A stretch of DNA of 64,000 nucleotides from NCBI GenBank assembly GCA_043797085.1, contig JAZDQA010000008.1, positions 1-64,000 on the forward strand, given 5' to 3'. Numbering within the stretch: position 1 is the stretch's first letter; each line of letters starts with the position of its first letter. This stretch comes from Pseudomonadota bacterium. Its GTDB lineage: Bacteria; Campylobacterota; Campylobacteria; Campylobacterales; Sulfurimonadaceae. The position numbers and the translations under genes were made by a program. Positions 1-26,242 of this stretch are shown here, piece after piece. The notes under the pieces were generated by a model that searched no databases, was not told where the DNA came from, and worked only from the letters and a program-made list of their open reading frames with translations.

Positions 1-3000
1 TTGCGGCAAACGGAAGTTACACCTATATGCCTGCTGCGAACTTCAACGGAGTCGACAGTGTTGATTACACCCTAACCGACGGTACCCTTAGCGATATCGG
101 AACCCTGACCATCACCGTTGCAGCGGTGAACGATGCACCGATACTCGACCTCGACGCCAACAACACAACAGCTTCAGGCAATAATTTTGCGACTACATTT
201 ACTGAAGGTGGAAGTGCGGTTTATCTTGCAGATACCGATATTTCAATTACCGATGTTGATAGCACAACCATTTCGACTGCAACGATTACGATTACGAATA
301 AAGAGGGTGGAGATTTCTTAACTGTAGGTACTTTACCATCCGGTATTACGGCGAGTGCCTATAACTCGACAACAGGTGTGATTACGTTGAGTGGAACGGC
401 CAGTTTGAGTGATTATCAGTCGGCTATTCGTGCTATTCAGTATTCTAATGACGGTTCAACGGTTAATACGACACGAGCCATTACGGTTGTTGTAAATGAC
501 GGAGCAAATAACAGCGCTCTTGTAACTGCAAATATTACTATTGTTACCCTTCCGACGGTTAGTATCACAGACGTATCGGTACAAGAACCGGCTTCTGGAA
601 CGGCTACATTGACGTTTACGATTTCGATTGATCAGCCATTGGCAACGAATTTGACCTTTAACTATGCAACGGCGAACGTAAGTGCTCTATCTGGATTGGA
701 TTATGTTGCTAAAACAACGACGGTTGGAACTATTATTGCCGGTGCGACATCAACGACAGTAACCGTAACAGTAAACAGTGATACCAATCTCTTTGAAGGG
801 GATGAAACCTTTAATCTTAATCTGACTGGATTTAATCAAACGGTAAATTTTGAGCCGGGTGCTCATGTCATCAGTGGAGGTATCCAAGGAATCGGAACCA
901 TCGGTGCAAATAACGGTGCGCCGATTGCTGTGGATGATGTTTTCGTTACTACACCGAATACGCCGTTGGTAACGGGTAATGTTCTGAGCAATGATACATT
1001 GGTTGATAATGCACATGTACAAACCTATAGTGCCATATCAGTGAATGGCGGTACGGTTGTATATAATAATGACGGTACCTTTACTTATACTCCTGCGAAT
1101 GGGTATACCGGAACCGATACCTTTACCTACACATTAATCGATGATGACGGTGATATGGATACGGCAACTGTAACAGTCAATGTTAATTCCATAGTCGTTG
1201 TTCCTCCGGCAGTGAGCAATGTTCCTGATACCACTTACGTAGAGAATGGAACGCCGATCAATCTAGTATCAGGAGTCACGATTTCCGATACAGACAGTAC
1301 TACGCTTTCATCGGTTGTGATTACAGTCAACGGATACATAGCTTCTCAGGATGTTATCGACTATTTGACAGCAGGAACAAGTATTACAGCAACTACATCG
1401 GTCAGTGGAAATACTTGGACATTGACCTTGAGCGGCGGTGTAGATATTAACGAATATCAAAGCGTTATGGGGACGATTATGTACCATAATACGTCCGAAA
1501 ATCCGAGTACTTCGACACGTAATGTTACCGTGACTGCGTATGATCAATCGTATGCGAATCTATATGGAAGTGACGCGGGAACACTCAACATTACAGCCGT
1601 TAATGATGCAGCGATTACTACAAATAACGAAGTTTATACCATAGGTACCAGTCAAGATAATTTACTTCATATTACTTTGCCAACCGATGCGGATACTGAT
1701 ACTAATTTACTTGTTATTACTGTAACAGGCTTACCGATCAACGGTACGGTGACATTGGAAGACGGAACAACTCCTGTAACCAATGGTGAAATATTGACTC
1801 TGGCACAATTAGGTTCATTGAAATTTGATGCAGGTGCTCTAAACAGTACAGGTACCTTGACCTATACGGTTTCAGATGGACAATATACGTCTACAGGAAC
1901 GACAACGATTAATGTCGGAACGACCAAAGCGGATGTCAATACGGTGTATGAAAGCGGATTAAACATAGACACACCTTTAGTGGACTACATTGGAACGCAA
2001 GCAGGTATCGCCGCTACGGTTGCTACAGGCAATCTATTTGCCAATGATGCAGGTACCATTGGGCAAACACTCAGCAATATTACGGTAGGTGGTACAGCTC
2101 CAATTGGTGGTATTATCACGACTACGACATCAATAGGAACATTGCAAGTTTATACGGATAGCAGCCATGTAGGGTATGTAGCGGGAGATTATGTATATAC
2201 GTTGACTTCACCATACAATAACCCTTCTGATCCTCTTGTGCAAAATGCTAGCTCATTTAATGAAGTCTTTAACTATCAGGTTACCGCTAATGGCATACCT
2301 TTAAGTAATACCCTTACGATTAATGTGGTCGATGATACTCCAATAGCAAATCCTGTTGTGCAGGATGTTCCGGAGTCAGAAGAAAAAATCTTTAATATCG
2401 TCTTGACGTTGGATAAGTCAGGAAGTATGGCATGGGGGGCTATAACAGGAGCTACTAATCCTGGTACTGAGCCTACTCGAATGGAGATTGCACAAAGTGC
2501 AATCCGGTCATTGGTACAGGAATATTTTAACCAATCTACCAATGTAACAGTGACATTATTGACGTTTAGTACAAATGCGGCTTATGAGGGTACCTATACG
2601 GATTATAATTCTTTTGCAACAAAATTAGCTACTGTAACTCCGAACGGAGGTACGAACTATGTCGGTGCAACCAATGCGATCGTAAATCAATTTACGGCTG
2701 ATTTAGCTCTGCCAGATGCTGCCAATAAGCAGCAAATTTCTTATTTCATCTCTGATGGTGAAGCTACGGCTGGAACGTCTCCTATTGGAAGCGGATACAT
2801 TGAATACGTTAATTCGCATTCGATAGAATCTTACTCGGTAGGAATCGGTTCAAGTTTACCTGCGGATGTTAGTGATTTGAATTATATACATAATATTGAC
2901 TCCATGGGAAGTGGTACGATAGACAGTGCTTTGATTGTTGATAATCTAAACAATCTCCAATCGGTTCTGCTTAGTACCGTACCGACAGCTTACGGCGGGA

Positions 3001-5549: not shown

Positions 5550-5590
5550 TTACCAAAATACGGGTATAAATAATTCGCTCTCTCTTCGTC

Positions 5591-5610
5591 GTGGCGGCTA
5601 TCTCCGCCAC
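5591..5610. terminator. GC-rich hairpin after the adhesin gene (possible terminator or 3' stabilising stem)
   Basis: GTGGCGG-ctatct-CCGCCAC, a 7-bp stem about 40 nt after the stop; no clear U-tract. Confidence 0.4.
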
Positions 5611-5767
5611 TCTCCGGAACAGTTTATGTGATTAATTTTGGCTGACTGCTTATAATCTTATTTCATCACAATTTTAAGATATTTTCGTTTTATTGCGCAG
5701 GTTTTTCAACATTTTAATAACAATTAGTGGGTAATATACCAGTATCAAGTATACAGGGCAAATTTAT

Positions 5768-6259
5768 ATGCAGCAGATTATTTTCTTTTTTATATTACTA
5801 CTATTTTCAGGATGCAGCACTCTTTCGTACAATGTCAACCAGGGGAAACTGGATAAAAATCAAAAAATTGTTGTGGATGTATTTTCAAATTATACGGAAA
5901 CTCCTATGGCAGGATACCGTGCGGCGTCAATCATGGATGCGGCACTCCTCCAGCGCGGATTTAAAAGCAATCCAATGTACTCGATGGTATCGGATGAGAG
6001 CAGTAACGTAGAAACACCTTTGACAGAGCGTATTCAAAAAGCAAAAAATTCAGGAGCATCTTTACTCGCGACGGGTGAGGTTATTGAGTGGCGTTACAAA
6101 ACTGGAATCGATGGTGAGCCTGCTGTAAGTTTGGTTATTCGTGTTTATGATACACAGACAGCTCAAGTGATTTTTAGTTCAACCGGAAGTAAGAATGGTT
6201 TGGGATATAGTTCTATAGGTCTTGTTGCCAACGATGTTATTAACGGAATGTTACCTTGA
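5768..6259 (+). CDS. pelC: PelC-like outer-membrane lipoprotein
   Basis: Lipobox LFSGC; PelC-family motifs NYTETPMAG and EWRYKTGIDGEPAV; first gene of the pel cluster. Confidence 0.85.
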   Translation: MQQIIFFFILLLFSGCSTLSYNVNQGKLDKNQKIVVDVFSNYTETPMAGYRAASIMDAALLQRGFKSNPMYSMVSDESSNVETPLTERIQKAKNSGASLLATGEVIEWRYKTGIDGEPAVSLVIRVYDTQTAQVIFSSTGSKNGLGYSSIGLVANDVINGMLP

Positions 6260-6298
6260 TTAGACTTTTTTTATTTCATAATAATCTAAGTTAGTTTT

Positions 6299-7564
6299 AT
6301 GATTCTTCAGCAAATATCGCAAAGACTTAAAATCTTAAATAGCTATACGATATGGATAGAAATCGTTATGTGGACGGTAGCTTTTATTATTTTCGGATAT
6401 TTATTTAGACCTTCTGACCCTATTTTTCTTAACAGTGATTATAATATTTTTCTTATTTACATGACGGTTTTCACCCTTTTTTATGGAACGGTTGTCGGGC
6501 TTTCGATGTTTGGCTTGATCTATTTAGTAGCTTTAAATTTTTACGATGTAATTCCCTATACAAAAGTTATGGAATATCTCATTTTTATTTTAATCTTTGG
6601 TGAATTTCATTACCACTGGAACCGAAAAATAAATATTTTGGAAGAGAGTACTTTTTATACTAAAAATCGATTGCGTATGCTTGGAAATGCTTTTTATTTA
6701 ACAAAAATTTCGCATGATCAGCTCGAAAAAGGGTATGTGTTACAGCCGATAAGTTTACGTGGTGCTATTGCTTCTTTGGTCAGTGATGCGAGTGTGATTG
6801 ATCGATATGAACACCTTTTAAAGCGTTTAGAACACTATTTTTCTCTTGAGTCAGCCGCATATTTTCATATAGACAATGCTAAAAAAATCAAAAAATTGGG
6901 TCAAATCGGATCGCACAATATAGAGTTTGACAGTGCTCATCCCATGATAGAAAAAATGATTGATAATGAACAGGCGATATTCGTTTCCGATGACAGTATT
7001 AAAAAAACAGATATTTTAGTTGTTTTGCCTTCTTTTGATCATCTGGGAGCGTTAAAGGGGGCATTGATTATCAAAGAGATGTCGTTTATGATGTTTAATT
7101 TGGATAATATTTTGAAGATTGAGGTAATTCTTAATTATTTCGAGCAAGAAAATTTGAAATATGCTATTTCAAATAAAAAGTCAAATTATCCACTTTTAAC
7201 CAAACCTGCATTTTCTTTTGAAGTAAGCCGTATGAAAGAGTTAAAGATACGATTTGGGATTGAGAGTTCGATGCTTTTAATTTATGCGGATCAACTTGCT
7301 TCCATTTCAGTTTTGGATTATTTTATTCTTAATAATCTACGTGTTTTGGATATGTATGAGAAGATTGCTTTTGATAATGATGAATATTTTTTCTTATTTT
7401 TACTTCCACTGGAGCGCGTTAGCGGTGCATTGAGTTTTAAGGAACGGCTTATCGGTAAAATGGCTTTGAATGTGCGCAAAGATTTACAAACTTTAATCGT
7501 GGGAATCGATCAAATTGATAATGCATTTGATTGGATCGATAAGACAAAACGTGTTGTTGCTTAA
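6299..7564 (+). CDS. pelD: PelD-like c-di-GMP receptor (N-terminal TM helices, GAF-like domain, degenerate GGDEF)
   Basis: TM N-terminus, PelD motif ISHDQLE, RxxD I-site (LRVLD), no GGDEF catalytic motif; position in the pel operon. Confidence 0.8.
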   Translation: MILQQISQRLKILNSYTIWIEIVMWTVAFIIFGYLFRPSDPIFLNSDYNIFLIYMTVFTLFYGTVVGLSMFGLIYLVALNFYDVIPYTKVMEYLIFILIFGEFHYHWNRKINILEESTFYTKNRLRMLGNAFYLTKISHDQLEKGYVLQPISLRGAIASLVSDASVIDRYEHLLKRLEHYFSLESAAYFHIDNAKKIKKLGQIGSHNIEFDSAHPMIEKMIDNEQAIFVSDDSIKKTDILVVLPSFDHLGALKGALIIKEMSFMMFNLDNILKIEVILNYFEQENLKYAISNKKSNYPLLTKPAFSFEVSRMKELKIRFGIESSMLLIYADQLASISVLDYFILNNLRVLDMYEKIAFDNDEYFFLFLLPLERVSGALSFKERLIGKMALNVRKDLQTLIVGIDQIDNAFDWIDKTKRVVA

Positions 7565-8552
7565 TCTGTTTTTACCGATCGCTTTGTTCGTAGAGGCTCA
7601 TGCTCTTATGACCCTTTTTCGCGGTGGAGATGCAGAGGGACTAAATACCTATTTTGTTTTTCATTTTTTAGCGTCTATTTTTATGACATTTTTTCAGTTG
7701 CAGTATGTTCCGAAGAACTATACAAAAGAGACAAAACAAATGGGGATATTTTTTCTTATTGTAAATTTTTCTACGTTGACGTTTGGATTTATTGTAACCA
7801 TGGTAGTGATTTTTTTTGGGTTAAGAAAAATGATTTTAACTCAGGAAGATATTAATACGGATAAGATTAGTTTTAACCAAATTACGGATGCCTATCCTGA
7901 AATAAAGCGAATTTTTGGAGAAGGTTCATTAGAAGATACTTTAAACAGTGAGCATGCTCATAGCAAGATAAAAATCAAAGCACTTTCTGCACTTTACAAT
8001 ACAAAAAATCCTGAAGCAATGAAACATATCAAAAATGCGCTCAGTGATGATAGTGATGAAGTTCGCTTGTACAGTTTTAGTTTGATCGATAATTTTGAAA
8101 AGGAACTTAATAAAAAAATTCATTTAGCGTTATTGGAGCTTCAAAATGAGTTAGATGAAGTAACACAAGGAGCTATTTATGGAAAACTTGCATTTTTATA
8201 CTGGGATATGCTCTATTATGAGATTTCTGATAGCAATCTAAAGAATTATTTTATGACGAGAGTACAAAATATGATTGATGCCTCTTTCAAACTGGCTCAA
8301 AATGATGGCTCTTTATATGTACTGCAAGGTAGACTACTGTTGTTGAACGGTAAAACACAAGAGGCAGAATCCTCGTTTAAAGATGCTTTAAATGCAGGGG
8401 CTAAGGTAAAAGTTATTAGTACGTATTTAGCCGAAATCGCTTTTCTTAAAAAGGATTTTACGCAAGTAGCCTACTGGCTTAATCAATATCCTAATTTATG
8501 TTTGGATTTAAAAATGTACAGCAACTATCAGTTATGGACAGGGAAAAAATGA
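7521..8552 (+). CDS. pelE: PelE-like inner-membrane HEAT/TPR protein (start uncertain; GTG 7551 is an alternative)
   Basis: N-terminal TM segments, LSDDSDEVRLYSF resembling the PelE motif, TPR-like C-terminus; lies between pelD and pelF. Confidence 0.75.
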   Translation: MHLIGSIRQNVLLLNLFLPIALFVEAHALMTLFRGGDAEGLNTYFVFHFLASIFMTFFQLQYVPKNYTKETKQMGIFFLIVNFSTLTFGFIVTMVVIFFGLRKMILTQEDINTDKISFNQITDAYPEIKRIFGEGSLEDTLNSEHAHSKIKIKALSALYNTKNPEAMKHIKNALSDDSDEVRLYSFSLIDNFEKELNKKIHLALLELQNELDEVTQGAIYGKLAFLYWDMLYYEISDSNLKNYFMTRVQNMIDASFKLAQNDGSLYVLQGRLLLLNGKTQEAESSFKDALNAGAKVKVISTYLAEIAFLKKDFTQVAYWLNQYPNLCLDLKMYSNYQLWTGKK

Positions 8553-10069
8553 ACGTAATTATTGATAAGAAAAATAAATTTGATATATTATTAGTCGCTG
8601 AGGGGACGTATCCGTATGTGCGCGGAGGGGTTTCGGGGTGGATTCACCAATTGATTAATGGACTGAAACATTATCGTTTTGGTATCGTTTTCATCGGAAG
8701 TCGTGAAGAAGATTACGGCGAAATACTGTATCAAATTCCTGAGAATTTGGATTTTTTAATGGTGGCCTATTTATTTAATGATTCGTCAAGACCGCCGGTG
8801 ATGGCGATGGAAGGTAAAAAGGAGGTCATTGATCATGTTGACTTCATTCATGACTGGTTTCGTAACAATGAGTCTACATTACCGGATGAATTGCAAAAAC
8901 TTAGTTTTTACAATGAGCAAGTCAGTGAGAAATTTTTTCTTTACAGTCACCGTTCATGGGAATATATCGAAAAAAAATATTATGAAAAAGCCAGAGAAAT
9001 GCCGTTTATTGATTATTTTTGGACAATACGTAATATTCACAGTCCGATATGGGTCGTTGCTAGAATCGCAAAAGCGTTAGAAGGACGAGCGAAAGTCATT
9101 CATTCCCCCTCAACCGGATATGCAGGTTTTTTAGGAGCACTTCTCGCTTTTAATGACCAGCTTCGGTATATTTTGACGGAGCACGGAATTTATACCAAAG
9201 AGCGTAAAATTGATTTATTAACCAATGATTTTTTGAGTTATCGTAAATTCGATATTTTCAAAGAGCCCGAAGAAGATGATGTTATTAAGCAAATGTGGGT
9301 ACATTTTTTTGAGGGGATAGGACGCTTTAGCTACAAACGAGCTGACTCTATCCTATCTTTATTTATCGGGGCACAAAATATTCAAATTGCATACGGTGCA
9401 GATGCCGCACGTTGCCGCGTTATCCCCAATGGTGTTGATGTTGAACGCTTAGGGAGTGTCATCGATAAACGCCCGGCTATTGTACCTAAAGTCATAACCC
9501 TGATCGGGCGTGTTGTGTCGATTAAAGATATTAAAACTTTTATCCGAGCAATCCGAATAGTTCAAGCCAAAATACCTGAGGTGCAAGGGTGGATTGTAGG
9601 TCCAATTGATGAAGAACCTGATTATTCACAAGAATGTTTGGATATGGTTGAAACTTTTAATTTGCAGGAAAATATAAAATTTTTAGGATTCCAAAATATT
9701 TTGGATATTTTGCCTCAAAGTGGAATTTTAACGCTAAGTTCAATCAGCGAGGGGATGCCATTGGTGGTACTTGAAGGTTTTGCTGCTGGTGTTCCTGCGG
9801 TAACAACCGATGTAGGATCGTGTAAAGAGCTTATTTATGGTGGGCTACATGATGAAGACATTGCGATTGGCAGTGCAGGAGAAGTGGTCTCAATCGCAAA
9901 TCCCGGAGCATTGGCTGAAGGATATTTAAAATTATTAGAGGATGAAGTTTATTGGCATACCTGTCAGCGAAATGCACTTAAAAGAGTGAATACCTATTAT
10001 ACGCAAGCCCAGTTTTTTGATGCGTACGATTCTATCTATAGAGAGGCATTGGCACCGTGGCAGGAATAG
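8549..10069 (+). CDS. pelF: PelF GT4 glycosyltransferase
   Basis: EGTYPYVRGGVSGW, STGYAG, LTEHGIYTKER, SISEGMPLVVLE motifs. Confidence 0.93.
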   Translation: MNVIIDKKNKFDILLVAEGTYPYVRGGVSGWIHQLINGLKHYRFGIVFIGSREEDYGEILYQIPENLDFLMVAYLFNDSSRPPVMAMEGKKEVIDHVDFIHDWFRNNESTLPDELQKLSFYNEQVSEKFFLYSHRSWEYIEKKYYEKAREMPFIDYFWTIRNIHSPIWVVARIAKALEGRAKVIHSPSTGYAGFLGALLAFNDQLRYILTEHGIYTKERKIDLLTNDFLSYRKFDIFKEPEEDDVIKQMWVHFFEGIGRFSYKRADSILSLFIGAQNIQIAYGADAARCRVIPNGVDVERLGSVIDKRPAIVPKVITLIGRVVSIKDIKTFIRAIRIVQAKIPEVQGWIVGPIDEEPDYSQECLDMVETFNLQENIKFLGFQNILDILPQSGILTLSSISEGMPLVVLEGFAAGVPAVTTDVGSCKELIYGGLHDEDIAIGSAGEVVSIANPGALAEGYLKLLEDEVYWHTCQRNALKRVNTYYTQAQFFDAYDSIYREALAPWQE

Positions 10070-11433
10070 GATTTCAGTTAAAAAAAATCACTGAAAAAGG
10101 GACAATCAGTTCTCTAATAAAAGCCTACGGGTATTCGGCAGCACTTAGCAGCGGTCCTTGGGTTATTTCCATGATTGTTATTTTTATGATTGGATTTATT
10201 AATATTTATTTTTTCCATTCGGGTGATCATGCGGTTAAGTTTCAAGTCATCGTCACCTATGCGTTAATGATGGCATCAAGTTTGATCTTTACCGGATTTT
10301 TACAACTCCCTTTTACCCGTTTTATTGCCGATAGAATATTTGAGGGGAAAGAAAAGCTTGTTCTGCCTAATTTTTTTGGTGTTTTATTTGTTATTTTATC
10401 ATTGGGTTTTTTAGTGGCATTTCCGCTTACAAAATGGTTATTTTTTGACCAAAGTACACTTTTTGTTACCTTGGCAGTAGCGACCTTTTTAGTACTAAGC
10501 TGCGTATGGATTTCAAATATTTTGGCAGTTAGTCTGCGGTTTTATAAATTTGTTATTTTTTCGTATTTCTTAGCTTATATGATTATTCTTGCATTGTCTA
10601 TTTATTTACGAAACTATGGAATCGAAGGACTATTATTCTCTTTCCTTACGGGCAATATTATCCTTTTCTTGTTGATGCTGATGGCAATTATTCGTCATTA
10701 TCCCTCTTCTTATTTTATCCGTTTCGATTTGTTTGATAATCGATATTTTTATTGGACATTGGGTTTTGCAGGATTATTTTACAATTTGGGTGTTTGGGCG
10801 GATAAAATTATTTTTTGGTACCATCCTTCCACCGGGATCAATGTTATTGGTCGTTTGAATGGATCGGTGCTGTATGATATGCCAATTTTCTTGGCATATC
10901 TATCTATTATTCCGGGGATGGCGGTCTTTTTTTATCGTCTTGAGGTGGAATTTGCTGAAAAATACGATTTATACTATTCGGCTGTGAGAATGGGTGGAGT
11001 ATTAGAGCAAATTGAACGGCACAGAAAAGGGATGATGGACGTTGTGAGAACATCCATTCGCGAAATTTTGACGATTCAAGGAGTTTTTAATCTGGCAATT
11101 TTTATGATTTCAGTTCCCCTGTTTGAAGCTTTGAAAATACCGCAACTTTTTTTGCCTCTCTTTTATATTGATTTAATCGGTACTCAGATACAACTGGGAT
11201 TTATGTCTATTTTGGCGTTTTTATTTTATATTGACCGACGTAAAGAGGCAATGATATTGTCTATTATGTTTTTTATTTTAAATATAATTTTCACATTTGT
11301 TTCCATTGAATTAGGTCCTTATTTTTTCGGATATGGATTTGCTGTTTCATTATTGATTGTTTTTATCGGTAGTTTGTATTATTTGAAAAAAGTTTTAGAA
11401 AGGTTGAACTATGAAACATTTATGCTTCAATAA
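10057..11433 (+). CDS. pelG: PelG Pel polysaccharide transporter
   Basis: MAGIGFQL N-terminus, SSGPW motif, multiple TM helices, C-terminal LNYETFMLQ. Confidence 0.93.
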   Translation: MAGIGFQLKKITEKGTISSLIKAYGYSAALSSGPWVISMIVIFMIGFINIYFFHSGDHAVKFQVIVTYALMMASSLIFTGFLQLPFTRFIADRIFEGKEKLVLPNFFGVLFVILSLGFLVAFPLTKWLFFDQSTLFVTLAVATFLVLSCVWISNILAVSLRFYKFVIFSYFLAYMIILALSIYLRNYGIEGLLFSFLTGNIILFLLMLMAIIRHYPSSYFIRFDLFDNRYFYWTLGFAGLFYNLGVWADKIIFWYHPSTGINVIGRLNGSVLYDMPIFLAYLSIIPGMAVFFYRLEVEFAEKYDLYYSAVRMGGVLEQIERHRKGMMDVVRTSIREILTIQGVFNLAIFMISVPLFEALKIPQLFLPLFYIDLIGTQIQLGFMSILAFLFYIDRRKEAMILSIMFFILNIIFTFVSIELGPYFFGYGFAVSLLIVFIGSLYYLKKVLERLNYETFMLQ

Positions 11434-14149
11434 GTGGGTTGTCTCTGTCGTTTATTTTATTTTTCTCGTAACCGGAAGTTTTGCTAAGAGCAACGAACAC
11501 GATGTCGCTTTTTATTATGAAAAATTGCCAAGTGAGACGTTTATGCAACATTTTGATTGGGTAGTTGTCGATCCGGATGTCATTCACCCTTCGATTAAAC
11601 GCTCATTTCAAAAAAAGCTTTTTGCGTATGTAAGCATCGGAGAGATAGAGCCATGGCGCGATTCAAATAAAGGGTATGATCGTCAATGGGTTTTGAAAAA
11701 TAACAAAGCATGGGATTCTCTGATTGTTGATTATACCAATCCGAAATATCAGAATTTTTTGATTAAAAAAATGAAAAATATCCAAGCACAAGGGTACGAT
11801 AATTTTTTTCTTGATACCGCTGATGCACCTTTTGGTGTTATTCTCCCTGCAGAAGAAGAAAAATACAAACAAGGTTTAGCTACGTTGTTAAAAGCCATTC
11901 GCACTGCATTTCCAAAAGCGAAGATCATTGCGAATCGTGGGTTTGAAGCGCAAGAGGCTTTGTGTAAAAATGTCAATGCAGTTGCTGCTGAATCTTTGTA
12001 TCAAGGAATTGATACGGCTAATTTTCACTACAAAGAGGTCTCAGCATCGGATAGAGAATGGATTAGTACGAAACTCAAACATTTTCAAGAGTGTGGGCTT
12101 GAAGCCATCGCCATTGATTATGTGTCACCGAAAAATCAAAAGCTACAACGTGCAACAGCAGATAAAATAGTAAAAGACGGATTTACCCCTTATGTAACCG
12201 ATTATAAACTCAATACTCATGGGGTTGGAAGGCACAAACGTCTTAGTCGTGAAGTATTGATTTTATACGATGCTTCTGAGCTTAAAGAACATGACCCGAT
12301 CTATTCTGCTGCATATCTCCAACTGTCGTTACCGTTGGAATATTTAGGTTTTATTCCCCATTTACATGATATTAGCAAAGGATTGCCGGATTTGACTACG
12401 CAATCTTTTGCCGGAATTATTATTTGGGAAGGTGGGCGTGATGAGAATGCTCTTTTTAATTGGGTTAAAGAGGCTGTCAATCAGAATATCAAGCTTCTTT
12501 TTTTAAATTCTTTTGGATTTGATCTGACTCTAGAGCGCTTGTCATTTTTGGGATTAGCATCGTCTAATACCCAAGCTCAGGCACTTGATCCAATCAAAAT
12601 AGTGCACAGTGATCCCATGGTAGGTTTTGAAATCCAACCTTTTTTGGAAAATAGAGATCCGTTGTTATCGTTACAATCGGGAAAAGCATTGATTGAAGTG
12701 ACAAATAAGCATGGAGAAGTTTTTGTCCCTGCCGCATTGACTCCATGGGGTGGATTTGCTCTGGATCAAAGTTTTTTAGTCTACGCTGGTGATGAGTCTT
12801 ATTGGGCTATGGATCCGGTAAAACTTTTTGCTCAAGCACTTCAACTCTCTTCTATCCCTGTCCCCTCTGCCACTACTGAAAATGGTTCACGTCTCTGGTT
12901 TACCCATATTGATGGTGATGGGATGATCGAACGTACGCGATTTCGATCGGATGAATACGCAGTTGAAACCCTTTATAAAGATATTTTAATGCGTTATCGC
13001 GTTCCCCATTCGATTTCAGTTATTGTCGGTGAAGTTTCTAAAAATGGTGTGGCTCCTGAAATATCCGAGCGTATGGAATCTGCGGTTAAAAAGATTTTTG
13101 CACTTAAGCATGTTGAACCGGCAAGTCATTCACATTCACATCCGTTTAAATGGAAAAAAATTACGGAAGCCGAAAATGATCCGAGCGAATATCATTTAAA
13201 AATAAAAGGGTATGAATTTTCTTTGGACCAAGAGCTACAAGGTAGTTTAGACTACATCAATACTTACTTGACCTCTTCGGATAAAAAAGCTTCAATGCTC
13301 TTTTGGACAGGTGATTGTAATCCGCCGGAGAATGTGTTAGAGTTGGCAGATGAAACAGAAATCTTGACCATTAACGGCGGAGATACGACCATTCAAAAAA
13401 GTACACCATGGCTCTCTTACATTGCACCAATGAGTGTTAAGAAAGACTCTTACCGAAGAATTAATGCGGCTATGCAAAATGAAAATGTTTATACAGGCAA
13501 TTGGATCAGTCCAAAATGGGGATACCGTAAGGTTATTGAAACATTTGAATTAACCAATTCCCCTAGACGCTACAAGCCGATTAATATTTATTACCATTTT
13601 TATTCAGCGTCTCTTACCCCTTCCATTGAGGCATTAAAGAGTGTGTATGATTATGTTTTAAAGCAAAAAACATTGCCTCTGTATGCGTCAGAGTACATTT
13701 ATATTGCAAAAGATTTTTATCGTACATCAATCTCTGAAGTGGAAGATGGATGGCTTATTCGTAATCGCGGGGATCTTAAAACAGTGAGAATTGCAAAAGA
13801 TGCAGGTTATCCTGATTTAGAACGAAGTACGGGAATTATTGGTTTTCAAGACGATGTTGACGGGCGATACGTTCATTTGGATGGGAGTGGAGAATATCGG
13901 TTGTATCTCAGTGACGCTTTGCCAAAGATTCCCTTTTTGATCGAAAGCAATGGTAGAGTCGTTAAAGCTCAAAAACAAAGTGTGACTCTGAAAAGTTATG
14001 TACCGTTGAAAATGAGTTGGTTTGTTCCGTCTTCCTGTGAGATTCAAACAATTTCAGCTCTTGCTTTGAATAAAGAAACAAAAAATACAACGTTAACCTA
14101 TACGACCACATCAGCTGCGGAGGTTACGGTTGCTTACCACTGTCGCTGA
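11411..14149 (+). CDS. pelA: PelA bifunctional glycoside hydrolase / polysaccharide deacetylase
   Basis: Signal peptide; hydrolase motifs AYVSIGE, FFLDT, NRGFE, AAESL; deacetylase motifs HIDGDG, SHSHSHPF, FWTGDC, YYHFYS. Confidence 0.9.
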   Translation: MKHLCFNKWVVSVVYFIFLVTGSFAKSNEHDVAFYYEKLPSETFMQHFDWVVVDPDVIHPSIKRSFQKKLFAYVSIGEIEPWRDSNKGYDRQWVLKNNKAWDSLIVDYTNPKYQNFLIKKMKNIQAQGYDNFFLDTADAPFGVILPAEEEKYKQGLATLLKAIRTAFPKAKIIANRGFEAQEALCKNVNAVAAESLYQGIDTANFHYKEVSASDREWISTKLKHFQECGLEAIAIDYVSPKNQKLQRATADKIVKDGFTPYVTDYKLNTHGVGRHKRLSREVLILYDASELKEHDPIYSAAYLQLSLPLEYLGFIPHLHDISKGLPDLTTQSFAGIIIWEGGRDENALFNWVKEAVNQNIKLLFLNSFGFDLTLERLSFLGLASSNTQAQALDPIKIVHSDPMVGFEIQPFLENRDPLLSLQSGKALIEVTNKHGEVFVPAALTPWGGFALDQSFLVYAGDESYWAMDPVKLFAQALQLSSIPVPSATTENGSRLWFTHIDGDGMIERTRFRSDEYAVETLYKDILMRYRVPHSISVIVGEVSKNGVAPEISERMESAVKKIFALKHVEPASHSHSHPFKWKKITEAENDPSEYHLKIKGYEFSLDQELQGSLDYINTYLTSSDKKASMLFWTGDCNPPENVLELADETEILTINGGDTTIQKSTPWLSYIAPMSVKKDSYRRINAAMQNENVYTGNWISPKWGYRKVIETFELTNSPRRYKPINIYYHFYSASLTPSIEALKSVYDYVLKQKTLPLYASEYIYIAKDFYRTSISEVEDGWLIRNRGDLKTVRIAKDAGYPDLERSTGIIGFQDDVDGRYVHLDGSGEYRLYLSDALPKIPFLIESNGRVVKAQKQSVTLKSYVPLKMSWFVPSSCEIQTISALALNKETKNTTLTYTTTSAAEVTVAYHCR

Positions 14150-15086
14150 GAAGAAAACGACGGTTATCTCAACCTTTGAGATGATTGGGATATTTGTACT
14201 CTTTTGTTCTTTGTTAATCGTATTTTTTCCAAAAGATAAAATTGAGCATCTCGTAACCAAAGAATCATCCAATTATAATCTGAGTGTTCAGTACCTTACG
14301 AATATCATTAATTCTTACCCTAATGATACGCGTGCAAAGTTTATGTTAGTCGAAATTTATTTAAAAATGCACTATTTCGATGAAGCTACTTTGTTGCTCG
14401 AAACATTACCGCAAGCAGATGAGTATAAAAAAAAGTTAAATTCATTGCAATATGATATTGCTAAAGCCCGCTATTTTTCATCAACGCTCGGAAAGAATAA
14501 TGAGGCAGATGTTGTCGCAATGGAAAAAATATTGCGCAATATGATGGTGTTGGCAACGTCTAAAAAGGAATGGGTGTTTTTGCTAGACGAAGCTAAAAGT
14601 ATGAATTTCCAACATTTGAGTGTGACCCTTGAAATAACGATGATAAAAAAGAATTTTTTGACACACCATCAAGCATTAGAAACTTTTGGACGGGCACGGT
14701 TTTTAAAGATGGATAAAGAAGTGAATGAACTTTTGCTTATAGGTCTTAAAGATACTAAAGATGTTGAGTGGATTAAGATCGCAGGGGATTATTATGTTTC
14801 AACAAAAAATTATTCGACTGCTATTTCTATGTATAAAACACTTTTAAGCAGAGACTTGCCTAAAAGTGAGCAAAAGAAAATTTTTGAGAAATTATTAACT
14901 CTTTATATCACTGAAAAAAAGAATGAAGCTGCCATTAAAATGATAGAAGAATATGAGGATATGATTTTAAAAAATGATGATTTGATTAAGAAAACAATTT
15001 CATTTTATCTTGCAAATAACCATTTGGATTTAGCAAAGAAATTTAGTTTGAAAATTTATAAAAACCGTTATCCTTCAGGAATTTAG
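14130..15086 (+). CDS. PelB N-terminal-like protein (TM anchor plus TPRs)
   Basis: TTG start with GGAGG RBS. TM segment followed by LSVQYLTNIINSYPND and TPRs, resembling the N-terminus of canonical PelB. Confidence 0.65.
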   Translation: MLTTVAEKKTTVISTFEMIGIFVLFCSLLIVFFPKDKIEHLVTKESSNYNLSVQYLTNIINSYPNDTRAKFMLVEIYLKMHYFDEATLLLETLPQADEYKKKLNSLQYDIAKARYFSSTLGKNNEADVVAMEKILRNMMVLATSKKEWVFLLDEAKSMNFQHLSVTLEITMIKKNFLTHHQALETFGRARFLKMDKEVNELLLIGLKDTKDVEWIKIAGDYYVSTKNYSTAISMYKTLLSRDLPKSEQKKIFEKLLTLYITEKKNEAAIKMIEEYEDMILKNDDLIKKTISFYLANNHLDLAKKFSLKIYKNRYPSGI

Positions 15087-18000
15087 ATGCGGTTTATTTT
15101 TATTTCAATGATATTTATTGCTACTTTGCTCGCTAAAGATGAGTCATGTTATTCGCTTCAACTCTATTCTTTTTCTGATAAACTGGGAGAAGCAGATACG
15201 ATTGATACATCGATTTATCCTGATGAGTGTAAAGTGATGCATATTAATGATCAATACACGTTGCGATGTGAATGTAAAAATAGTTATAAGGAAGCCCATT
15301 CAATTATTAAGAAATATCATAAATTTGTCAGTGATGCGATTGTCGTTCAAACGTATAAATGGCGTTTTGATATTAATTCAACAGTAGAAGCCTCGATTGT
15401 ATTAGAAGAAAATTTGCCTTCACTACCACTAAAAATAGATAAAAAGTCAAACCTTTCAGAAGATATTTTGCGATTAACTTTGCAGGTTATGCTTTACAGC
15501 GGTGATTTAAAAAATGCTTTAATGATTGTTCAGCAGGGTGTAAATCAGTTTCCAAACAGTTCATGGTGGAATGAACAAGCCGCTCAAATTGCTCTTTGGA
15601 GCGGAAATTCCTCAGATGCGCTAAATTATTATCTTAAATTTTATACACTGACACCAACTTCCAAAACTCGTAAAGATATTCAGGCTCTTGCCGGACAACT
15701 GCAAAATCAAGAGGTATTGATTCAGATGTTGAAAGAAGCGATATGGGTTGGGGAAGAACATAATATTTCTAAACTTGTAAATGCCTATCAAAATAGTGGA
15801 AATTTATCTCAAGGAGCTGAGTTTTTTGGGTCTTTATATACTAAAAATAAAGATAAAAATACTTTAAAGGCAAAGATTGGTTTGCTTCAGCTTGATCGAA
15901 AAACAAGTGAAGCCCAAACGGATTATGATATTTACGTTAAGGCGTATGGATTCGACCAAGAATTGGATATACGATTTGCAACGATAGCTTTTTCGGAAAG
16001 AAAAATAGATTTAGCCTATAACTATCTTCATCGTCACGCTCAAACCATTGCCCATAATCGGGATGACTATTGGCATTTTTATATCGAAATATTATGGTTT
16101 AAAAGATCATTTGATGAGCTTTACACAATTTTGCATGAACGTTATAATGAGCATTTGCTCCGAGCGTTCGATAAGGATCGTTTAGCCCTTCTGTCTCTCT
16201 CTTATGACAAAAAATTTGCATCCGATTTTGCCTTGGAAACCTTCTTGAAAGAACAAAAAACAAGTTCATTTTTTACATTCATCTTTTTAGCTAAGGAGCA
16301 AAAAGCATTTAGTCTGATTGAATCGACTATTGATACTTTGGATGAACAACATCGACTATTGTTAGAAAAAATGGCTGAATTTTGGATTTTAAAGGGAGAG
16401 ATTGCCATTGGGCATCGTTTAGTGGATAAAGCGGATGGATTTTATCAAAAGGCTATTGAAATTAATCCAAATAATACGGCTATTAATGTTACCTATGGAT
16501 GGTTTCTATTGGAACAAAATCGGATTGATTCATTACAAAAATGGCTCAAGAAAATTGAAAAAGAAGAAAAAAGCAACTCGATTGAATATGCATTATTGAG
16601 TGCATCGGCTTATTTGAAAATGCAAAATAGCGATAAAGCAAAAGGATATGTAGAAAAATTGCTCTCTACATATCCCAATGATCCAACTTTATACGTTTTG
16701 TACAGTGATGTTTTGAATCTTTGGAGCGATAAAGAACTCGCTTATAAATATCAGTACCGTGCATGGAAAAATATGAATCGTGCTCTTGATAAAAACCCTT
16801 TAATGGAAAAAAATCCTGAATTTTTAGGGACATATCTCCGACTAGGAATGCAGTTTGAGCCACAAAAATATAAAAAATGGATTCAACGAGCAAAAAAAGG
16901 GTTAAGCAAAGAGGCATATAATAATTTTGTACTCGGTGTAGCCGTCATTGGCTCCAATGATGAAGCCATCGCCTACGCTAAAAAAAGAGTTCAAAAAAAT
17001 GAGCCATGGCTTGAACTGTACATGGCATTTTCTGAAAATGATATTGATAAAATGTCAAAAACTGTTTTATCGCATGCACAAGAACTTCCCATCGCTGACA
17101 GAGTTCAAGCCGCCTATCAAGCCGGAAATCACAATGATGCTTTTTCTTTAGGAATTCAAGGCTTGAATGAAAATCCAAATAATAATGATCTTTATGGGTT
17201 ATTGTACAATTACTGGATGCAAGACTATACGAAACTTCGTTTGGAAACATCTTATATTTATCGATCTCCGTTGATCTATCAAGAGATGGATTTGAGAGTT
17301 AATCATCCATTAATCAAAGGGTATGATTCGCATATAGAATTCCGACATAGGAATCAAAAAAGTGATAATATTGAAAATCTTCCTACTGTTCCATCCCAAG
17401 ATCAGGAAGTTTTGCTCGGGCTGAAAAAAAGAAGTAAATTTGTTGACACAGAGATAGAAATGGGATACCGAAAAAGTTTGCAATCTTTTTGGATGGGACA
17501 AATGAAAGCGGCTTTTCATCTTCCCTCCTACACCTTCAATCTTCAACTTAAGCAACATGCTGATGCGGATGAGAGTGTTTATCTAAGTGTGGGTGGGTAT
17601 AAAAATACTATTGAATTCGATGGAATGCACAGTTTAACCAATACACTTCAACTGGCTGCTTTTATAAAAGAAAACAGTTATTATGGTGCGGATGGAGTAA
17701 AAGCAGGAAGCGGTTGCGAGTATTCGGCAACCATTTCCAAACTGTTGCGCAGTGGGTATCCGGATTTTGGTGTGCACGGTTCTCTGGGGTACTACGGATA
17801 TAATCAGTCCAATAAAATTTTAGGTTCTCTTGAAACCGTTCTTCCCTTAAACGAGACACCCATTTTGCCAAATGACTACACTCAGATGGCATTAGGAATG
17901 TTTTACGGAACCGGAACTCGTGAGTATTTTATAAAACAATGGCGTCCTTACATCACTACGGATATTGCCTACAATACAGAAAATGGATTAGGATATACTA

Positions 18001-18134
18001 TTGTGAGTGGTATCGGGGGGATGCTTTTGAGGGATGATCGACTTTCCCTGGAAGTTAGTTATTCATCCAATATTGGTGTTTTTTCCAATGACTATTACAA
18101 GCTATCCTTTCTCTATTTTTTATACGGATGGTAA
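15087..18134 (+). CDS. pelB: PelB-like TPR / beta-barrel export protein with an N-terminal SPOR-like domain
   Basis: Own signal peptide, long TPR region, C-terminal beta-strand region with PelB-like motifs (ADESVYL, RSGYPDF, WRPY). Confidence 0.8.
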   Translation: MRFIFISMIFIATLLAKDESCYSLQLYSFSDKLGEADTIDTSIYPDECKVMHINDQYTLRCECKNSYKEAHSIIKKYHKFVSDAIVVQTYKWRFDINSTVEASIVLEENLPSLPLKIDKKSNLSEDILRLTLQVMLYSGDLKNALMIVQQGVNQFPNSSWWNEQAAQIALWSGNSSDALNYYLKFYTLTPTSKTRKDIQALAGQLQNQEVLIQMLKEAIWVGEEHNISKLVNAYQNSGNLSQGAEFFGSLYTKNKDKNTLKAKIGLLQLDRKTSEAQTDYDIYVKAYGFDQELDIRFATIAFSERKIDLAYNYLHRHAQTIAHNRDDYWHFYIEILWFKRSFDELYTILHERYNEHLLRAFDKDRLALLSLSYDKKFASDFALETFLKEQKTSSFFTFIFLAKEQKAFSLIESTIDTLDEQHRLLLEKMAEFWILKGEIAIGHRLVDKADGFYQKAIEINPNNTAINVTYGWFLLEQNRIDSLQKWLKKIEKEEKSNSIEYALLSASAYLKMQNSDKAKGYVEKLLSTYPNDPTLYVLYSDVLNLWSDKELAYKYQYRAWKNMNRALDKNPLMEKNPEFLGTYLRLGMQFEPQKYKKWIQRAKKGLSKEAYNNFVLGVAVIGSNDEAIAYAKKRVQKNEPWLELYMAFSENDIDKMSKTVLSHAQELPIADRVQAAYQAGNHNDAFSLGIQGLNENPNNNDLYGLLYNYWMQDYTKLRLETSYIYRSPLIYQEMDLRVNHPLIKGYDSHIEFRHRNQKSDNIENLPTVPSQDQEVLLGLKKRSKFVDTEIEMGYRKSLQSFWMGQMKAAFHLPSYTFNLQLKQHADADESVYLSVGGYKNTIEFDGMHSLTNTLQLAAFIKENSYYGADGVKAGSGCEYSATISKLLRSGYPDFGVHGSLGYYGYNQSNKILGSLETVLPLNETPILPNDYTQMALGMFYGTGTREYFIKQWRPYITTDIAYNTENGLGYTIVSGIGGMLLRDDRLSLEVSYSSNIGVFSNDYYKLSFLYFLYGW

Positions 18135-18173
18135 TGATATATAATATTTTTATCTGATGTTACGCACCTATTA

Positions 18174-18294
18174 CACATTGAGTGATTTTCTTGAAAATTC
18201 AAAAATGCATAAGCTAATGACGTAAAACAAAAGTAGCACTGCCTCTTAACGAATGAAGTTTAGAGTTGAATTTTCAAGAAAATCACTCAATGTG
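18174..18294. repeat. 29-bp perfect inverted repeat around a 63-bp spacer (MITE/REP-like element)
   Basis: CACATTGAGTGATTTTCTTGAAAATTCAA at 18174-18202 and its exact reverse complement at 18266-18294. Confidence 0.85.
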
Positions 18295-18341
18295 CATAAT
18301 GTCAGTTATTGTTTTTTTTAAAAATTCGCTATCATAGCCAC

Positions 18342-18986
18342 ATGAAAAAGTCGTTTACCCTTTTCTTCATAGCAGCGGCAATCGCTGCTACTCTTATAAG
18401 CTCTCCTGAATTTACCATTGCCAAACCTTTTTTAGACAAAATCGAAAAAGAGTACGGTGTTTTTGCTAAACGTCGTGCACTTGCATTGGTGCAAATGATG
18501 AGCAGTGTCAGAGATCAAGAAGAGATGGAAAAAATGGAAAAAGTGAATGATTTTTTCAATCAAACTCCGTATGCATCCGATCAAGCTACGTATGGACAAA
18601 GCGATTATTGGGCGACTCGATTGGAGTTTATCGGTCGTGATAAAGCGGATTGTGAGGACTATGTCATCGCAAAATATTTCACCCTCAAAGAGTTGGGTGT
18701 TTCACCCAAAAAACTCTATATGACCTACGCGAAATCATTGAAGTTCAAAACGGCTCATTTGGTTTTAACGTATTACGAAACTCCACGATCAATTCCATTG
18801 GTTTTGGATAATTACAATTTTAAAATTCTTCCTGCATCCCAGCGTGACGATTTGATTCCGATTTACAGTTTTAGCGGTGATGAACTTTTTTCTGCCAAAC
18901 AAGCACAAATCGGAAAACTCGTCCCCGCATCCAGTGCACAAAAACGTCCATGGAACGAACTTATCATCACCCAACAAAAGGAATAA
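18342..18986 (+). CDS. lapG: LapG-like periplasmic transglutaminase-like cysteine protease (BTLCP/C93)
   Basis: Signal peptide, VNDFFN, DYWAT, and catalytic triad motifs DCEDY / AHLVL / VLDN; adjacent to lapD. Confidence 0.9.
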   Translation: MKKSFTLFFIAAAIAATLISSPEFTIAKPFLDKIEKEYGVFAKRRALALVQMMSSVRDQEEMEKMEKVNDFFNQTPYASDQATYGQSDYWATRLEFIGRDKADCEDYVIAKYFTLKELGVSPKKLYMTYAKSLKFKTAHLVLTYYETPRSIPLVLDNYNFKILPASQRDDLIPIYSFSGDELFSAKQAQIGKLVPASSAQKRPWNELIITQQKE

Positions 18987-18989
18987 AAC

Positions 18990-20951
18990 ATGAGCTTATT
19001 TAAACAACTTTCCATTATGCTGACACTTTTTTTAGGAATCATTCTCGCTTCGGTTATGATTTTAAATTTTAAAACAGCAACTGAGTTTGTCCAAAATCAA
19101 CTCTATACGGATGCCAAAAATACGTCGCATTCTCTGGGATTATCGCTTTCAAAAGTGGCCGATCCACAGGATACATCGACGATGGATACGATGATTAATG
19201 CGATTTTTGACAGTGGATATTATGAACGTATCAGTCTCAAAGATGTGGATGGAAAAATACTGTATGAGCGTAAAACGGATGTTGTGGTGAGCGATGTCCC
19301 ATTATGGTTTATTGGTATTGTTCCTATCCAAAGCAGTACCGCTTCCAGTGATATTATGATGGGGTGGAGTCGTTTTGGAACCTTGGAAGTACGCGGTCAT
19401 ACGGGTAATGCGTACCTTCAGCTTTATTCCACTTTGATTGAATTGGTGAAAACGTTTCTTATTTTAGGTGCGATTGTTTTTGCTTTTTTGTATCTGCTGT
19501 TATCGTTGAGTTTGAAATCACTTAAACGAATTGGTGATCAGGCAAAAGGAATTATCAAAAATCAATTTATCTTTGAAGACAAAATTCCTTTTACAACAGA
19601 ATTTCGGTCAGTTACGGTAGCGATGAATGCCATGGTAGGAAAAGTAAAAGATATTTTTGAGCGTGAAGATGAGACATTGAAACGTTATCATGAACTTTTG
19701 TACAAAGATGCTGAAACAAAGCTCTACAATCGCCGTTATTTGGTTGCAAAACTTCCTGACTATCTTCAGGCAGACACGTTGTTTTCAGCCGGTGTTTATG
19801 CATTGTTTAGTTTTGATGAACTGGATCGACTGAAAAAAGAGCTTGGGTATGAAGCTTACCGTTCGCTCCTTACTTCTTTTGCAAATAGCTTGAATGATGA
19901 GTTTTCCGGTGATCCGCACACTCTTATCGCACGCTTGAATGAAAGTGATTTTTTTGTGGTAATACCATCAAAAGAGTCATCGGAGATTATCACGAGACTT
20001 GAAAAGATTATGAATCTGTTGCATCAGAATATCATACGAGAAGATGAGCCAGCAGTAATGCATGTGGTCGTAGGGTGCAGTGTTGGAAACTATACCGAGA
20101 ACGATACCCTTAAATCTCTTTTTTCACGAGCAGATCATTCGGTTACTCAAGCAAAACTTCGACAAAATTTTTCAATTGATATCAACGTTGAGGGTAAAGA
20201 TTCTCTCATACTTGGTCGTGAAGAGTGGAGAAATGAACTGCTGCTGAGCTTGGAAGAATCACGAATGTTATTGGCATTCCAAAGTGTTGTGAATGTACAT
20301 GACGGTAAAACGGATGTACTGCACGAAGAGATATTTTTACGTCTTTTGGATAAAGAAGGGACGATTCATTCAGCCGGTTATTTTATCCCTATTGCTACAA
20401 GTTTGGGTCTGATTGATATTTTGGATCGTTACATGATTACGCAAGTATTAAAGTATTTAAAAGAGCAAAATCAAGTTACTTCAATGGCGCTAAATCTAAG
20501 TGGAGATTTTGTCAAAAAATATGCCAATATTGAGTGGTTAAAAATACAGCTTGAACTTTTTTCACGTACCAATCGAACACAATTGTGGTTTGAAGTAAGT
20601 AACTCTATCGCATTATCTGAGCTTGAAGCGGTACAATCCTTGTGTAAAACAGTCAAACATCTTGGACATCGTTTCGGGATAGATCATTTTGCGTTGCCCG
20701 AGAGCGGGGCACTTTATCTACAAGCCATAGGACCTGATTATGTTAAATCGAATGCAGGGTATTTACAAGATATGATGCTGGATAACGAGACAGGAAATAC
20801 ACGCGAAAGTTTGAATAATTTAGTAAAAAGTTTGGGAATTTCGATTGTGGCGATAATGATCGAAAATTCCGAACAGATGGAAGCCCTTAAAAATCTCGGA
20901 GTAACAAGATTTCAAGGCTCGTTTGTTGCACCTGTGGCGATGCTCAAGTAA
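18990..20951 (+). CDS. lapD: LapD-like c-di-GMP receptor (LapD/MoxY periplasmic domain, HAMP, degenerate GGDEF and EAL)
   Basis: MSLFKQL N-terminus, SLGLSL, AIFDSGYY, VPLWF, and the GW (LapG-binding Trp) motif. Degenerate catalytic motifs NESDF and EIF/DHF. Confidence 0.9.
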   Translation: MSLFKQLSIMLTLFLGIILASVMILNFKTATEFVQNQLYTDAKNTSHSLGLSLSKVADPQDTSTMDTMINAIFDSGYYERISLKDVDGKILYERKTDVVVSDVPLWFIGIVPIQSSTASSDIMMGWSRFGTLEVRGHTGNAYLQLYSTLIELVKTFLILGAIVFAFLYLLLSLSLKSLKRIGDQAKGIIKNQFIFEDKIPFTTEFRSVTVAMNAMVGKVKDIFEREDETLKRYHELLYKDAETKLYNRRYLVAKLPDYLQADTLFSAGVYALFSFDELDRLKKELGYEAYRSLLTSFANSLNDEFSGDPHTLIARLNESDFFVVIPSKESSEIITRLEKIMNLLHQNIIREDEPAVMHVVVGCSVGNYTENDTLKSLFSRADHSVTQAKLRQNFSIDINVEGKDSLILGREEWRNELLLSLEESRMLLAFQSVVNVHDGKTDVLHEEIFLRLLDKEGTIHSAGYFIPIATSLGLIDILDRYMITQVLKYLKEQNQVTSMALNLSGDFVKKYANIEWLKIQLELFSRTNRTQLWFEVSNSIALSELEAVQSLCKTVKHLGHRFGIDHFALPESGALYLQAIGPDYVKSNAGYLQDMMLDNETGNTRESLNNLVKSLGISIVAIMIENSEQMEALKNLGVTRFQGSFVAPVAMLK

Positions 20952-23870: not shown

Positions 23871-24206
23871 ATGTTGGAAGTTAAACTACATCCGAAAGCC
23901 CAAGAGGATTTAGCTGAAGCTCTCGATTACTACACCTCTATCGATCAACCGATCAAAAATAAATTTATCGATGATTTGGATTTGACATTCGGCAAAATTC
24001 AAAAGTATCCAAAGCTATATCCCTATGAGACACTAACGGCTCAAAAAGTTTTGTTAAAAAAATTCCCCTATATCGTGCTGTATGAACATTTTGAAAATGT
24101 CATTATGGTTTTGGCTATTTTCCATACCAAGAGACATCCGAATATTTTAGATGTTAGAAAAGAGACGCTACAAAAAGAAAATTTTAAAAGCGGATTTGCT
24201 AGTTAA
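23871..24206 (+). CDS. RelE/ParE family toxin
   Basis: VKLHPKAQEDLAEALDYY...KFPYIVLYE...VLAIFHTKRHP. Confidence 0.85.
   Translation: MLEVKLHPKAQEDLAEALDYYTSIDQPIKNKFIDDLDLTFGKIQKYPKLYPYETLTAQKVLLKKFPYIVLYEHFENVIMVLAIFHTKRHPNILDVRKETLQKENFKSGFAS
24174..24206 (+). repeat. Diverged duplicate of the ygiQ 3' end (copy of 22830-22862)
   Basis: 27/33 nt identical; KENFKSGFAS* versus KDNFKSGFGS*. Confidence 0.8.
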
Positions 24207-26146: not shown

Positions 26147-26242
26147 ATAAAACCTTTATGGTATTAAAAAAAATAATAAATTTTAGTATTAAATTGTTAT
26201 TGGATAAGTATAACACACCAAAAATAAAAGCGGATATACAAG

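Follow-up and report, generated by a model that had tools for sequence, protein, structure and literature searches.

A Pel operon nested in the Lap adhesin locus of a Campylobacterota genome, most likely by insertion in a single lineage

Genes for the Pel polysaccharide are reported to be widespread (PMC7890745), and lapDG genes, as in the Lap system of Pseudomonas fluorescens (LapA, LapBCE, LapD and LapG), have been counted in about 1300 species (10.1101/198937, whose supplement may include Campylobacterota). Full-length PelA has been reported in Epsilonproteobacteria (PMC12022489), and a pel operon of Nautilia profundicola AmH with the order C-D-E-F-G-A-B is listed in supplementary file 9 of PMC7112194, where the legend of Fig 5 iii also names a "pelB fission" clade of aquatic thermophiles. 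We analysed a window of 64,000 nucleotides (GenBank assembly GCA_043797085.1, contig JAZDQA010000008.1, forward strand), which opens contig C8 of a 2.4-Mb genome (G000) and in which a pel operon stands between a LapA-like adhesin gene and lapG-lapD. Its 11 open frames between positions 3 and 20951 are all on the + strand and intact, in the order adhesin, pelC-D-E-F-G-A-B1-B2, lapG, lapD (Table 1; names assigned from family hidden Markov model [HMM] and structure searches), which confirms the co-oriented run described in the first-pass annotation of this DNA. The pel genes abut or overlap one another, and the only larger gaps follow the adhesin (218 nt) and pelB2. The locus resembles that of N. 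profundicola in its Campylobacterota host, gene order and shortened pelB, whereas the latter is a prediction only and the sections of PMC7112194 that deal with it mention no Lap linkage. Predictions in print thus already cover the presence of Pel in Campylobacterota, its CDEFGAB order and the fission of pelB. New here are the hit-trpD slot, a scar at the junction and a predicted SPOR-like domain on the barrel half of PelB. In a literature search with subscription papers mostly outside its scope, we found no account of pel lying inside a Lap locus, no functional study of Lap in Campylobacterota and no SPOR domain in a Pel PelB.

The Pel operon was most likely inserted in this lineage at the adhesin-lapG junction. 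In all 14 informative lap-positive congeners the adhesin directly precedes lapG (G454, whose contig begins inside lapG, was dropped from this count), and the closest relatives, G435 and G453 (LapD 93-94%), have the same block of type I secretion system (T1SS), adhesin, lapGD and ygiQ, with no pelG. The 65-nt scar behind the adhesin matched the G435 junction with a score of 67, which none of 2000 shuffles reached; of 32,036 windows of the genome (mean 23.7, standard deviation 4.6), only lapG itself scored higher. Its match to lapG of G000 itself was weaker (score 34, reached by 32 of 2000 shuffles). The adhesin end plus scar is nearer to G435 (46/60) than to G453 (20/60), and the spacer before the present lapG is nearer to G453 (21/30) than to G435 (12/30). 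Since the scar matches its own lapG less well and the right spacer is G453-like, the junction may be a two-allele recombinant rather than a simple duplication; a donor-derived 5' half of lapG was rejected, as identity along the gene showed no clear step. The pel cassette has a GC content of 0.356 against 0.408, and 19 of 1125 windows of the same size were as low. The direction and route of insertion are what we infer from these observations.

In run X1 an identical contig (3997-6184) spans the left junction, as does a diverged one from X6 (5349-6213, 86 letters replaced), so an assembly chimera is not the explanation there. The source strain of X1 may be the same as G000; X1 is an RNA library whose contigs leave gaps over pel (bins covered, 23 of 30), and it cannot show transcription. 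At the right junction, where a repeat sits, no bridging contig was found among the matches listed; related contigs of X5 reach up to 18203 and resume from 18271, and X5 also holds an 8.8-kb pel piece about 93% alike. Because the flanking hit, murF and trpD-like genes are shared with a Sulfuricurvum sp. locus (L097) at 76-79% identity, we take the host to be a Sulfuricurvum-like member of the Campylobacterota.

Table 1. Features of the adhesin-pel-lap region (window positions unless a contig is named)
Feature	Position	Strand	Description
Adhesin, C-terminal 1848 aa	3..5549	+	LapA-like RTX protein; 5' end cut by contig start
Insertion scar	5550..5614	+	Decayed adhesin-lapG spacer and first ~17 lapG codons
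pelC	5768..6259	+	Outer-membrane lipoprotein; lipobox Cys16
pelD	6299..7564	+	c-di-GMP receptor; R348, D351, R383 align to R367, D370, R402
pelE-like	7515..8552	+	Membrane/TPR protein; named from position and homologues only
pelF	8498..10069	+	GT4 glycosyltransferase; NF038011, 605>100 bits
pelG	10057..11433	+	Inner-membrane exporter; PF16933, 447>29 bits
pelA	11411..14149	+	Hydrolase/deacetylase; H499, D501, D503, H573, H577, E691, H729, E194 kept
pelB1	14130..15086	+	Front of split PelB; N-terminal membrane anchor and TPRs
pelB2	15087..18134	+	Predicted signal peptide, predicted SPOR-like domain (~20-95), TPRs, beta-barrel
Dispersed repeat, 121 nt	18174..18294		29-nt perfect inverted arms; MITE/ERIC-like hairpin
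Predicted sigma-70 -10 box	18328..18341	+	6 nt before lapG ATG; leaderless-type start
lapG	18342..18986	+	BTLCP cysteine protease; C104-H139-D156, calcium site D103/E105
lapD	18990..20951	+	c-di-GMP receptor; W126 periplasmic loop, GGDEF, EAL
Candidate adhesin N-terminus, 526 aa	G000:C11:229030-230607		Retention fold, DP 103, TAAG 116

The true start of lapG is the ATG at 18342. A gnTAnnAT box stands 5-9 nt before the ATG in 17 of 18 lapG genes from 16 genomes, compared with 36 of 1486 background starts (lapG of G458, G421, G091 and G454 are not among the 18). The -10-then-ATG pattern has been used for leaderless mRNAs in this class (PMC3847290); lapGD is therefore probably a transcription unit of its own, and an upstream insert need harm neither side. 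Loss of the lapG ribosome-binding site upon insertion was ruled out, since -10-then-ATG is the norm in the genus. The lapGD pairs of G213, G152 and G010 (L063-L068) have no adjoining adhesin, and two of the three show the pattern. Sigma-70 scans covering both junctions yielded no clear signal, and no terminator was detected at either; ahead of pelC, at 5651, there is a TATAAT box. The intergenic 121-nt repeat between pelB2 and lapG is present in G000 as 15 full-length copies and 4 partial ones, and also occurs in G435 and G453; it was not found in G423, G231 or G408, and matched no Rfam family at gathering score. One X5 contig links the repeat end to window position 5703, which suggests a left-junction copy in that strain. 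Within positions 1-32000, no riboswitch or known RNA matched Rfam at gathering score.

The combination is rare. Across the phylum, PelG was above cut-off in 18 of 401 genomes and LapD in 128; five of the 18 also had LapD, and in the four besides G000 the two lie at least 90 kb apart. In the genus, pelG was present in 5 of 66 genomes and lapD in 40, both together in G000 only; in the four remaining congeners with pel, neither the LapD sensor domain nor lapG is present (0/4). Family-wide, 70 of 353 genomes had pelG above cut-off and 246 a C93 protease, and in none of 41 further family genomes with both, many of them fragmented, were they on one contig. Among 80 PelA loci of mixed taxa, none had matches to lapG, the LapD sensor, RTX or a T1SS (flanks of at least 1.5 kb on both sides in 15/80 and on one side in 67/80; the positive control worked). 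Metagenome scans with PelA and PelB returned no relatives. In one genus of family f3, 74 of the 79 genomes sampled have LapD. Among the genomes examined, the synteny comparison thus found intact nesting in this lineage only.

We surveyed the hit-trpD interval in 31 hand-picked congeners: the pel carriers, genomes with lapD on a longer contig, and genomes that have no lapD but whose hit and trpD share a contig. It held lap only in 15 genomes, lap and pel in one (G000), a reversed galE-pel arrangement in two, pel with RTX/lapD remnants in one (G408), a lapD remnant in one (G409), a second GT4/GH114 cluster in three, a cellulose cluster in one (G446) and none of these in seven. G231 and G405 have pel in place of lap, and in G413 pel is located outside the slot. 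The three GT4/GH114 genomes, G420 (L178-L179), G447 (L180-L181) and G451 (L188-L189), carry an uncharacterised polysaccharide cluster encoding a Sel1 repeat protein, GH114, a TolC-like protein, a PelF-like GT4 (DUF3492), GNAT, GT2, CE4, a flippase-like protein, HlyD, an HD-domain protein, a UDP-sugar dehydrogenase and an epimerase; it resembles a Pel-related system whose export is tripartite. The G446 slot (L184-L185) holds BcsA, B, Z, a split BcsC and BcsQ facing a GT2/CE4 cluster. In trees, PelFG of the five congeners formed one clade (100/100), with G000 and G408 together (96/97), and the near-identical PelFG of G231, G405 and G413 belong to hosts that are far apart and scattered on the trpD tree. 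These single-locus trees therefore point to transfer of pel within the genus, and the hit-trpD interval is likely a slot where matrix cassettes have been gained, lost and exchanged.

The Lap half of the locus agrees with P. fluorescens Lap in its TIGR03375-type T1SS, RTX adhesin with retention fold, TAAG and DP motifs, catalytic triad and calcium site of LapG, and LapD with the Trp loop and with GGDEF and EAL domains that look dead from their degenerate catalytic motifs. It differs in that a polysaccharide operon lies between adhesin and lapG, a LuxR-like gene precedes the adhesin, lapG is apparently leaderless, and both LapG and LapD stay under the cut-offs of their NCBIfam equivalogs (NF045674, 175<320; NF045673, 331<1020), each being nevertheless the best match. 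LapG matches 4FGO and 4U65; LapD exceeds the PF16448 cut-off (134>25), and its GW loop, which holds the periplasmic Trp described in PMC13090378, aligns with 4U64. The adhesin carries tandem-95/Big_9/cadherin-like repeats, Calx-beta, vWA and RTX domains, and its missing start probably lies on contig C11. That contig ends with tolC (273>225), a TIGR03375 ABC gene (872>693), hlyD (398>209), a LuxR-like gene and a 526-aa adhesin N-terminus with an open frame, whose last repeat type is the one that opens C8, and the join is proposed because relatives have a C11-type T1SS block before adhesin and lapG. No direct overlap of C11 and C8 was found, only a shared 30-nt repeat. The predicted model of this N-terminus resembles the anchor domain of MpIBP (5IX9; Z 10.3, rmsd 2.1, 75 residues aligned; next row 3.9), a retention fold. 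The retention-module HMM NF033682 stays below its cut-off (17.3<50), with 12 of 15 homologues matching at E<=1, and the cleavage motif [T/A/P]AA[G/V] occurs in 11 of 15 aligned adhesin N-termini; the DP and [T/A/P]AA[G/V] motifs are those given in 10.1101/198937. A retention module and a TAAG site, which the first-pass annotation had suggested looking for upstream, are thus found if the join is accepted, and adhesin cleavage gated by c-di-GMP is predicted.

G000 has further T1SS loci. A second T1SS with a LapA-like adhesin lies at C2:2-8714 (L094), with the site TSSG instead of TAAG; its N-terminus is disfavoured as the missing start by the same gene order of the relatives, and the single LapG may cut it poorly or not at all. 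A third T1SS, at C13:236281-252375, has a large repeat protein on either side (~2500 and ~1280 aa).

The assignment of the operon to the Pel family held up. PelF, PelG, the PelD motif residues, a bifunctional PelA and PelC plus PelB are all present, PelA matching 9CGY across residues 31-857 (E 6e-134) and PelC matching 5T10 (E 7e-18) and 9H80 (E 3e-14). With PelE named from position and homologues, all seven functions of P. aeruginosa Pel are represented, and the key PelD, PelA and PelC residues are kept; in contrast, the order is CDEFGAB with a split pelB, not the canonical one-piece pelABCDEFG. The PelA residues in Table 1 correspond to H526, D528, D530, H600, H604, E723, H761 and E218 as named in PMC12022489. 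For PelD, the single sequence had no match in the PDB and Pfam PelD_GGDEF stayed below cut-off (20.4<27), and a 16-row profile matched the solved PelD structure (E 4e-18). R348, D351 and R383 were placed by profile alignment to 4DMZ on the three residues essential for c-di-GMP binding (PMC2170427), and all three are kept in 13 of 16 homologues. The two c-di-GMP effectors, PelD and LapD, therefore look as intact as first described. PelE had no match at cut-off in family HMM scans; it lies between pelD and pelF, and homologues occur in all 20 other pel loci. From these motifs, the locus is predicted to make a partly deacetylated alpha-1,4-N-acetylgalactosamine (GalNAc) polymer under c-di-GMP control, for which two GalE homologues elsewhere in G000 could be the UDP-GalNAc source. 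The pel loci of G011, G187, G258 and G386 have an extra full-length pelA after pelB.

PelB is encoded in two genes. PelB2 aligns to residues 292-1170 of P. aeruginosa PelB, barrel included (PF24604, 119>31), and the PelB1 profile matches residues 53-113 (E 2.4e-5). The split is at the same point in 16 of 20 other Campylobacterota loci, at another point in two (G043 and G106, with a first half of ~700 aa), and PelB is whole in two; a frameshift origin was ruled out by the shared split point and by the hydrophobic start that PelB2 has of its own. P. aeruginosa PelB has been proposed in PMC12141448 as a possible bridge of both membranes; that one-chain bridge is impossible here, and two chains are needed. 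A domain of ~75 residues heads a PelB barrel gene in G000 and in 8 of the 20 other loci; all its carriers were in the training alignment, and no further matches appeared. In structure comparisons of the PelB2 N-domain model, four of the top five rows were SPOR domains (Z scores RlpA 6.4, CwlC 6.3, DedD 6.2 and DamX 5.6, all Z under 8); Foldseek gave CwlC a probability of 0.99 yet an E value of 0.034, and Pfam SPOR did not match the domain. We hypothesize from this predicted fold that it would anchor the pore to peptidoglycan. The same SPOR-like domain heads an O/P-type porin gene directly before pelC in G011 (L030:5549-7345). A predicted complex of PelB1 with the tetratricopeptide repeats (TPRs) of PelB2 scored 0.32 against 0.00 for the best control (agreement of contacts 84% or more, partner pLDDT 81 or more). 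Of the solved pairs, 116 of 157 reached the mark, as did 2 of 215 mismatched ones, and scores of 0.60 or below among the pairs that reached it came from just 18 solved pairs and both mismatched ones; the signal is weak and was not used as evidence.

At high c-di-GMP, PelD would bind the nucleotide and PelDEFG would make poly-GalNAc, which PelA would deacetylate and the PelB2/PelC pore would export, while LapD would hold LapG so that the adhesin, once secreted by the T1SS, remains tethered through its retention domain. A drop in c-di-GMP would stop Pel synthesis, and LapG would cut at TAAG and free the adhesin. Pel synthesis and adhesin retention thus probably both rise with c-di-GMP. Such a shared switch needs no linkage, because both effectors act after translation, and the junction would tolerate an insertion owing to the predicted leaderless promoter of lapG. 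G000 has 20 open reading frames (ORFs) with an intact GG[DE]EF motif. On the - strand at window positions 24203-30746, 3-10 kb downstream of lapD, is a block of candidate local c-di-GMP modulators: an ORF resembling TonB-type receptors, a small protein of the periplasm and a pair of membrane GGDEF-EAL proteins; similar blocks occur in G435, G420 and G447.

We consider it likely that the Pel operon was inserted, in this lineage, into a Lap locus conserved in the genus, and that this brought together two c-di-GMP outputs of separate evolution and probably separate transcription. Several observations weigh against this. Related strains in X5, X6 and X8 (~93% alike) hold adhesin, pel and lap pieces too, and X6 bridges adhesin to pelC, so the arrangement has persisted; this and the intact frames fit selection. 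No terminator was found behind the adhesin, so read-through into pel is possible; the C11-C8 join is by synteny; fragmentation of the metagenome-assembled genomes means that the 0/41 count understates possible linkage; and the trpD tree is that of one gene beside the slot, which may move with it. A selected, co-regulated adhesin-Pel superlocus, with pel under the T1SS-adhesin promoter or the LuxR-like regulator and the adhesin binding Pel in one matrix, would draw on the persistence, on the intact genes, on the left junction with no predicted terminator, on the shared orientation, and on G408, a distant host that carries the sister clade of pel, where pel has the same orientation before RTX/lapD remnants. 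We nevertheless regard it as unlikely: the lap genes of G408 have decayed beside pel, the arrangement is intact in 1 of 66 congeners and in none of the 44 other family genomes with pelG and C93 protease whose positions were checked (the 41 plus G010, G152 and G213), a TATAAT box precedes pelC, and lapG has its own predicted promoter, with a strong hairpin ahead of it.

Pel and Lap could also be alternative attachment strategies, with G000 caught before one of them is lost. That 39 of the 65 other congeners have lapD, and the four with pel do not retain the sensor domain or lapG, would fit replacement, as would the remnants in G408 and the substitution of pel for lap in G231 and G405. Those are only four genomes, however, two of them incomplete (92-93%) and three nearly identical in pel; pelG and C93 protease occur together in 41 other genomes of the family, no gene in G000 is decayed, and the arrangement is common to strains ~7% diverged, which makes replacement very improbable. 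The widest scenario, in which the slot swaps at least four attachment systems (Lap, Pel, PelF-like/GH114/TolC and cellulose), the stacked adhesin-Pel acts as a selected unit and a SPOR-held pore replaces the PelB bridge, is speculative and somewhat unlikely as a whole. The nesting of pel in Lap thus probably goes back to an insertion in a single lineage, at a matrix slot of variable content, rather than being a conserved fused system. Of the integrated locus under one switch that was first proposed, the joint response to c-di-GMP remains likely, and "fused" was an overstatement, given the single lineage, the scar and the separate lapGD.

No new regulatory principle is revealed by this locus. 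Lap-type control is common in Campylobacterota, as the family-wide C93 count and the LapD count in one f3 genus show. The natural split of PelB and, in some lineages, its predicted cell-wall-binding domain bear on whether bridging has to be done by one chain. Near-identical neighbours with and without pel (G000 versus G435 and G453) make the contribution of Pel to an adhesin-based biofilm testable. For biofilm assembly in sulfur-oxidising Campylobacterota, the finding would mean that whole matrix cassettes are moved into one slot, with a transcription boundary as the landing site.

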